Below, piece by piece: positions 63,001 to 64,000 of a stretch of DNA of 64,000 nt. This DNA comes from Escherichia coli (lineage in GTDB: Bacteria; Pseudomonadota; Gammaproteobacteria; Enterobacterales; Enterobacteriaceae), in assembly GCF_003334785.1 (NCBI RefSeq), contig NZ_QOWV01000019.1, one strand, 5' to 3'. The position numbers are program-made. Numbering within the stretch: the first letter of the stretch is position 1; each line of letters begins with the position of its first letter.

Positions 63001-64000
63001 TTGTCAACCAGAACGACATGATGAACTGTTAACGTTAGCGAATGAAGTGATGGTTAAGCGTCTGGCTAAAGGGATCAGTGAGCAAGAACTGAATGAATAC
63101 CAGCAAAACGTTCAGCGCAGCCTCGATATCCAACAGCGTAGCGTTCAACAATTAGCGAACACTATTGTAAATAGTCTTATTCAATATGACGATCCTGCAG
63201 CATGGACTGAGCAGGAGCAATTGTTGAAACAAATGACGGTAGAGAATGTTAACACTGCCGTTAAACAATATCTTTCTCATCCGGTAAATACTTATACCGG
63301 AGTATTATTGCCAAAATAATAACAGCCCCGTCAACACATCGTTGGCGGGGATTTTAGCAATATTCGCTATTTTTATGTAATAATTTTATAAATGCGTTCA
63401 AAATAATAATCAAGTACTAATAGTGATATTTTAAGGTCTGATTTTTACGTGATAATTCAGGAGACACAGAATGCGCATAAAAATAACAGCATAAAACACC
63501 TTACCACCACCCAAGAATTTCATATTGTATTGTTTTTCAATGAAAAAATATTATTCGCGTAATATCTCACGATAAATAACATTAGGATTTTGTTATTTAA
63601 ACACGAGTCCTTTGCACTTGCTTACTTTATCGATAAATCCTACTTTTTTAATGCGATCCAATCATTTTAAGGAGTTTAAAATGGATAAGAAGCAAGTAAC
63701 GGATTTAAGGTCGGAACTACTCGATTCACGTTTTGGTGCGAAGTCTATTTCCACTATCGCAGAATCAAAACGTTTTCCGCTGCACGAAATGCGCGACGAT
63801 GTCGCATTCCAGATTATCAATGACGAATTATATCTTGATGGCAACGCTCGTCAGAACCTGGCCACTTTCTGCCAGACCTGGGACGACGAAAATGTCCACA
63901 AATTGATGGATTTATCCATTAACAAAAACTGGATCGACAAAGAAGAATATCCGCAATCCGCAGCCATCGACCTGCGTTGCGTAAATATGGTTGCCGATCT

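Follow-up and report, generated by a model that had tools for sequence, protein, structure and literature searches.

The gadBC operon encodes the glutamate decarboxylase and the glutamate/GABA antiporter of the main system by which Escherichia coli survives extreme acid, and to our knowledge, this antiporter is the only glutamate/GABA antiporter of that system. Glutamate-dependent acid survival is part of the reason why very few E. coli cells suffice to pass the stomach. Both gadA and gadBC carry a GAD box, a sequence of 20 bp whose centre lies 63 bp before their starts (PMC2887963), and the activator is common to the two promoters (PMC2887963, PMC4918353). At gadA, 16 bp separate the box from the -35 element downstream of it, and RcsB and GadE protect positions -50 to -76; the RcsB-GadE footprint, the gel shifts, and the point mutants of that study were all done on gadA (PMC2887963). 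The GAD box has a left half similar to an RcsB half-site, and like other RcsB-type boxes it is bound by an RcsB-containing heterodimer; unlike the RcsA/RcsB boxes, its partner protein is GadE instead of RcsA, and its right half is GadE-specific, the assignment of the half-sites being tentative (PMC2887963). GadE also binds the hdeAB-yhiD, hdeD, gadE, and yhiM promoters in ChIP-exo, where the motif TTARGAWWWWAAATA is shared with gadBC; the GadE peak centres in this set fall at +9.5, -54, -55, and -78.5 from the transcription start, unlike that of gadBC (PMC4918353).

The DNA analysed here (the window) is a stretch of 64,000 nucleotides of E. coli, whose positions 63320-64000 comprise the gadBC regulatory region and the start of gadB. 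By megablast, this region is 100% identical to the corresponding DNA of E. coli K-12 MG1655, C600, J53, and many other strains, and it was found in all 5,426 complete E. coli genomes, the gene underneath being annotated gadB. The window carries the reference gadBC promoter and not merely a related one, and the element is therefore already known: the promoter, the box, and the mechanism have been described, and every positional detail reported below agrees with the published mapping. We consider it nearly certain that 63320-64000 is the K-12-identical promoter and start of the gadBC operon, with RcsB-GadE acting at the box, GadX upstream of it, CsrA on the leader, and a hairpin that probably ends pqqL transcription; no finding of this analysis contradicts this explanation. 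What is mildly new lies at the population level, namely the sharp conservation boundary that falls at the box, and a deleted (AR_0085) or displaced (MSI001) box in two singleton strains.

Read from 62800 to 64000, the sequence contains a long open reading frame that runs to a TAA stop codon at 63317-63319, a spacer of 361 bp, and an ATG at 63681 that opens a frame exiting the window. The first frame is pqqL (60536-63319, + strand), which encodes an M16 metallopeptidase and is the upstream neighbour of gadB, as judged by the RefSeq annotation of identical K-12 DNA and the list of open reading frames. The second is the 5' part of gadB (63681-64000, + strand), encoding glutamate decarboxylase B and truncated by the window end; it was assigned by sequence match and annotation. 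The intergenic spacer (63320-63680) has a G+C content of 30.2%, compared with 47.2% for the whole window, in agreement with the AT-rich region of about 360 bp that a preliminary description of this DNA had placed after pqqL. An Rfam search at a permissive E-value over 63000-64000 gave no match; the spacer is without a known RNA element or an extra gene, and nothing unexpected lies inside it. Across 18.7 kb, the window and the MG1655 derivative NZ_CP032667.1 differ by eight single bases (window positions 47226, 48561, 49374, 52478, 55757, 57592, 60750, and 61032), none of them within 63320-64000; the source is therefore K-12-like, yet it is not that exact sequence.

The GAD box and its activator

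The 20-mer TTAGGATTTTGTTATTTAAA occupies 63582-63601 on the + strand, approximately -73 to -54 with its centre near -63, and its exact match, its alignment with gadA, and the published positions identify it as the site bound by the RcsB-GadE activator. It is the sole match in the 64-kb window, even when up to three mismatches are allowed, and none of 100 dinucleotide shuffles contained it. The published GadE site, TTAGGAttTTgTTATTTAAa (PMC4918353), agrees with the window box at 20 of 20 positions, and the exact GAD box that had been described at gadB is thereby borne out. There are 79 nt between the last position of the box and the gadB ATG (63681), close to the "about 80 bp" given earlier, and the start of the box lies 99 nt upstream of the ATG. 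With +1 at 63654/63655, the box centre falls at -62.5/-63.5, and a gap of 16 bp separates the box from the hexamer TTGCTT, both agreeing with PMC2887963. At gadBC, ChIP-exo places a GadE peak with its centre at -62.5; this peak was scored as activating, with RpoS involved, and its signal was weak, with an S/N of 2.78 (PMC4918353). In a gadE deletion, gadB mRNA changes by a log2 value of -6.44, a drop of about 87-fold (PMC4918353). The short ChIP-exo GadE motif TTARGAWWWWAAATA is uninformative as a search pattern, giving seven matches in the window at up to two mismatches against 4.5 expected, and its compressed spacing even makes it miss the true box.

The K-12 gadA promoter, which belongs to the acid fitness island, carries the same box (20/20), equally far from its ATG, and the alignment of the two promoters that the preliminary description had called for places the boxes in register with the start codons, without a mismatch. 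The two promoters also share the -35 core CTTGCTT, the block GATAAATCCTACTTTTTTA spanning the RcsB box and the -10 element, and the Shine-Dalgarno sequence, and their similarity in the K-12 alignment is high from the -10 region onwards and extends into the coding sequence. In contrast, the 15 bp that lead from the box to the -35 element differ, as does all the sequence 5' of the box, and the spacer measures 210 bp after ccp at gadA but 361 bp after pqqL at gadB.

The gadBC promoter is weak and would depend on an activator bound at the GAD box (63582-63601). This activator is probably the GadE-RcsB heterodimer, for which the biochemistry comes from the identical gadA box and is carried over to gadB by sequence identity together with the ChIP-exo and expression data. 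According to an older model, GadE alone binds the box as a homodimer and activates, RcsB having no role. This model draws on earlier reports of GadE binding the GAD box by itself, as stated in PMC2887963, and it can point to the GadE motif recovered at GadE-bound sites by ChIP-exo (PMC4918353). On gadA DNA, however, purified GadE alone protects neither box, both proteins are required to protect the stretch from -50 to -76, and the earlier GadE preparations were contaminated with RcsB (PMC2887963); we regard action of GadE alone as very unlikely and retain the heterodimer as the activator of gadBC.

Core promoter, leader, and flanking regulatory DNA

We assign the -35 element to TTGCTT at 63618-63623 (+ strand; four of six consensus positions), 16 bp 3' of the box, from the spacing known for gadA (PMC2887963) and the conservation of CTTGCTT between gadA and gadB. 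The putative -10 element, TACTTT at 63641-63646 (+ strand), follows 17 bp after it and agrees with TATAAT at three of six positions, the assignment being based on sequence and spacing. Transcription would start at 63654/63655 from this weak promoter, with involvement of RpoS. The published primers gadB-173 and gadB+77 (PMC3050690) map to 63482 and 63730, a numbering that sets +1 at 63655 or 63654. A sigma-70 scan of 63200-64000 returned three promoter-like matches, which were rejected as chance since their number equals the expectation (2.7), and it left the gadBC promoter uncalled; the hexamers are too weak for a consensus scan, in keeping with an activator-dependent promoter with RpoS involvement (PMC4918353).

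A second, repressing RcsB site has been described in gadA and is conserved in gadB apart from its left end, where a C replaces the G of gadA (PMC2887963). From the text of that study and the gadA/gadB alignment, we infer that the RcsB box of gadB is CGATAAATCCTA at 63631-63642 (+ strand), an extent that overlaps the -10 element. As at gadA, binding to this site may repress gadBC when RcsB is abundant; the repression was established on gadA and is transferred here by sequence identity.

The leader (63654-63680, + strand) is 26 to 27 nt long and contains the Shine-Dalgarno sequence AAGGAG at 63669-63674; a 27-nt gadB leader in PMC11210196 is consistent with a start at 63654/63655. CsrA binds the gadB leader with a Kd of 49 nM and represses translation in vitro, and four GGA motifs have been reported as CsrA sites (PMC11210196). 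We likewise count four GGA motifs in the leader and the early coding region, and CsrA bound to this short leader would repress translation.

Upstream of the box, the AT-rich regulatory zone at approximately 63367-63491 contains the published GadX ChIP-exo peaks centred at -184, -225, and -268, placed here by their distances to the start at 63654/63655 (PMC4918353, supplementary table 3). A further GadX peak at gadBC lies at +66 (PMC4918353). A search with the published GadX/GadW motif AKGKCTGWTWTTWWYMYVAK gave three matches in the window at up to two mismatches, where 0.38 were expected, and the sole match with a single mismatch, and hence the best, is AGGTCTGATTTTTACGTGAT at 63434-63453 (+ strand; -221 to -202). 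This site sits between the GadX peaks at -225 and -184 and is nearly invariant in the divergent alleles described below. GadX binds the AT-rich DNA upstream of the box and adds modestly to expression, its contribution to gadBC being less than 2-fold (PMC4918353). For GadW, the ChIP-exo data of the same study list no peak at gadBC (PMC4918353).

At the other end of the spacer, the sequence CCCCGTCAAC-ACATC-GTTGGCGGGG at 63326-63350 (+ strand) is predicted by RNA folding to form a hairpin, which is followed by ATTTT and is a probable intrinsic terminator of the pqqL transcript. The hairpin starts 6 nt past the pqqL stop codon and has 10 pairs with a dG of -18.6 kcal/mol (z -5.46); none of 200 shuffles was equally stable. 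It is kept in five divergent E. coli alleles, the single change affecting a wobble pair. The preliminary description had set the GAD box adjacent to the pqqL terminator; the hairpin after pqqL is indeed present, but "adjacent" is a loose term for a distance of 231 bp. Most likely, this G+C-rich hairpin ends pqqL transcription and leaves gadBC to its own promoter. A generic terminator scan misses it because its tail, ATTTTAGC, has a run of only four T residues, the threshold being five T in eight. Three terminator-like matches of that scan between 63200 and 64000, none of them at 63326-63350, were rejected as chance. A weak hairpin called by the terminator scan at 63280-63301 (seven pairs, four of them G-C) lies within the last pqqL codons and was taken as a chance match.

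Map linkage with ydeP, safA, and ydeO

In K-12, the gene order is ydeP, safA, ydeO, ydeN, ydeM, (yneP), yddA, yddB, pqqL, gadB, and gadC, all on a single strand except yneP. By annotation, ydeP lies at 49240-51519, safA at 51767-51964, and ydeO at 52039-52800, all on the + strand like gadB; the gadB start is 14,441 bp from the start of ydeP and 10,881 bp from the end of ydeO. Inverted-repeat matches to TTCYTACANNTGTARGAA, which we take to be an EvgA-box-like consensus, occur upstream of ydeP (48979-48996, two mismatches) and upstream of safA (51638-51655, one mismatch); they are two of three matches in total, against 0.55 expected, and the third, weaker one lies inside ydeO. The described cascade runs from EvgA through YdeO and GadE to gadA and gadBC (PMC4222967, PMC11210196), and ydeP is a direct EvgA target in the EvgA-activated upper tier (PMC4222967, PMC11210196, PMC4283999). 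The earlier statement that two tiers of acid resistance lie within 15 kb on the same strand therefore holds, with ydeP and safA-ydeO at the top of the cascade, gadBC at the bottom, and 10.9 to 14.4 kb between them. The middle regulator, gadE, accompanies gadA in the acid fitness island, at another site of the K-12 chromosome, and is absent from the annotated genes between ydeP and gadB.

This proximity might itself be functional: selection may have held the ydeP-safA-ydeO-gadBC segment together as a second "acid island", or chromosome structure may coordinate the regulation of its genes. Besides the common strand and the short distances, such a reading finds some support in GadX, which also binds upstream of the intervening ydeN and whose deletion slightly raises ydeN, ydeO, and ydeP (log2 0.6 to 0.86) (PMC4918353). 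Against it, the five genes that lie between ydeO and gadB carry annotations other than acid resistance (a sulfatase and the maturase of this sulfatase, an ABC transporter, a TonB-dependent receptor, and a peptidase); the strong hairpin divides pqqL from gadB; and we found no data on co-regulation by proximity. The arrangement in Escherichia sp. E1V33 also speaks against it. There, a segment (1-13414) contains DNA matching window positions 33414-37158 (lsr-like), then about 2.2 kb with a transposase-like open reading frame of 485 amino acids, and then yddA-yddB-pqqL-gadB; ydeP, safA, ydeO, ydeN, and ydeM are absent from this 13.4-kb segment, the ydeP-ydeM block thus missing from this position. 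We judge a functional linkage improbable. As observed, ydeP and safA-ydeO are tied to gadBC by map position alone, and their proximity is real but not conserved across the genus.

Conservation and natural variants at the box

Alleles were sampled at even steps down the ranking of whole-spacer matches, and those aligned had identities of 95.6, 94.2, 91.2, and 90.9%. In five alleles whose spacers are about 91 to 100% identical, no position of the box varies, and the stretch from the box to the ATG has two variable positions, both directly after the box, whereas the upstream part of the spacer differs by about 10%, with the differences dense 5' of the box. The same pattern is found in the complete genomes. 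The 99-nt core from the box to the ATG (63582-63680) was detected in 5404 of 5426 genomes, with 3584 records at 99% identity or more and 3 below 95%; the adjoining 99 nt upstream (63483-63581) were detectable by the same method in 3295 of 5426, with 274 below 95%. The GAD box thus marks a sharp conservation boundary, and the GadX-binding upstream region seems to evolve much faster than the core.

An exact scan for the 20-mer in one genome per species identified eight Escherichia loci, together with three matches in unrelated metagenome-assembled genomes that were rejected as chance, being within apparent coding sequences. In E. albertii, E. whittamii, Escherichia sp. E1V33, and two representatives named E. 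coli, the box lies 79 to 80 nt before a gadA/gadB-type ATG. The scan required an exact match and therefore shows distribution rather than conservation, so that invariance of the box across Escherichia species is a partly circular result.

That the gadA box equals the gadB box, and that the two do not vary among strains, could in principle result from gene conversion or recent common ancestry and not from selection on a binding site. Exchange is plausible, given the high similarity of the two loci from the -10 region into their coding sequences. Yet the flanks of the box, both the 15 bp to the -35 element and the upstream DNA, differ between the two genes while the box is identical at 20 of 20 positions, which makes it an island of identity and not part of one conversion tract. 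Moreover, the conservation boundary among gadB alleles falls at the box, and a point mutation in the gadA box (M1) abolishes both binding and activation by GadE (PMC2887963). Gene conversion as the cause of the box identity was rejected on account of the differing flanks, and we give this explanation as a whole almost no credence beside a selected binding site for RcsB-GadE.

Two strains depart from the common arrangement at the box. In E. coli AR_0085 (NZ_CP029741.1; locus segment 2950-3050), a deletion of 9.2 kb joins window position 54369 to 63598 and removes the 3' part of ydeN, the genes ydeM, yddA, yddB, and pqqL, and 16 bp of the 20-bp GAD box; gadB keeps the TAAA of the box and an intact -35 element, -10 element, and leader. 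This junction occurs in 1 of 5,426 genomes, and it may be real or an assembly artefact. In E. coli MSI001 (NZ_CP076645.1; locus segment 1301-2504), an IS5-like element with an ISKpn26 family transposase separates the box from the gadB -35 element; its insertion at window positions 63610-63613 is accompanied by a CTTT target duplication and displaces the box by about 1.2 kb from the core promoter. A reading in which the box is a sharp boundary between a nearly invariant core and fast-evolving upstream DNA, and in which rare strains such as these two have uncoupled gadBC from the box, appears unlikely to us. Continued expression of gadBC in AR_0085 and MSI001 would uncover routes to glutamate-dependent acid resistance that are independent of GadE; in the absence of such expression, the two strains would be natural acid-sensitive variants. 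In a weaker form of this reading, the segment from ydeP to gadC behaves as a second, lineage-specific acid island.

Copies of the promoter labelled as plasmid-borne were found in six places, of which one was inspected. This record, the "plasmid" pZYS9073-A (NZ_CP159530.1, linear, 298,830 bp), carries yddA-yddB-pqqL-gadB-gadC-digH-dosC in chromosomal order with a promoter that is 100% identical, and it is probably a chromosome fragment and not a mobile copy. In E. coli E69 (CP089930.1; locus segment 6772-8878), the similarity to K-12 upstream of gadB ends at about window position 63337, within the pqqL hairpin. The 2.1 kb beyond this breakpoint is without a long open reading frame or a pqqL match at the thresholds used, and the upstream neighbour of gadB therefore differs in that lineage.
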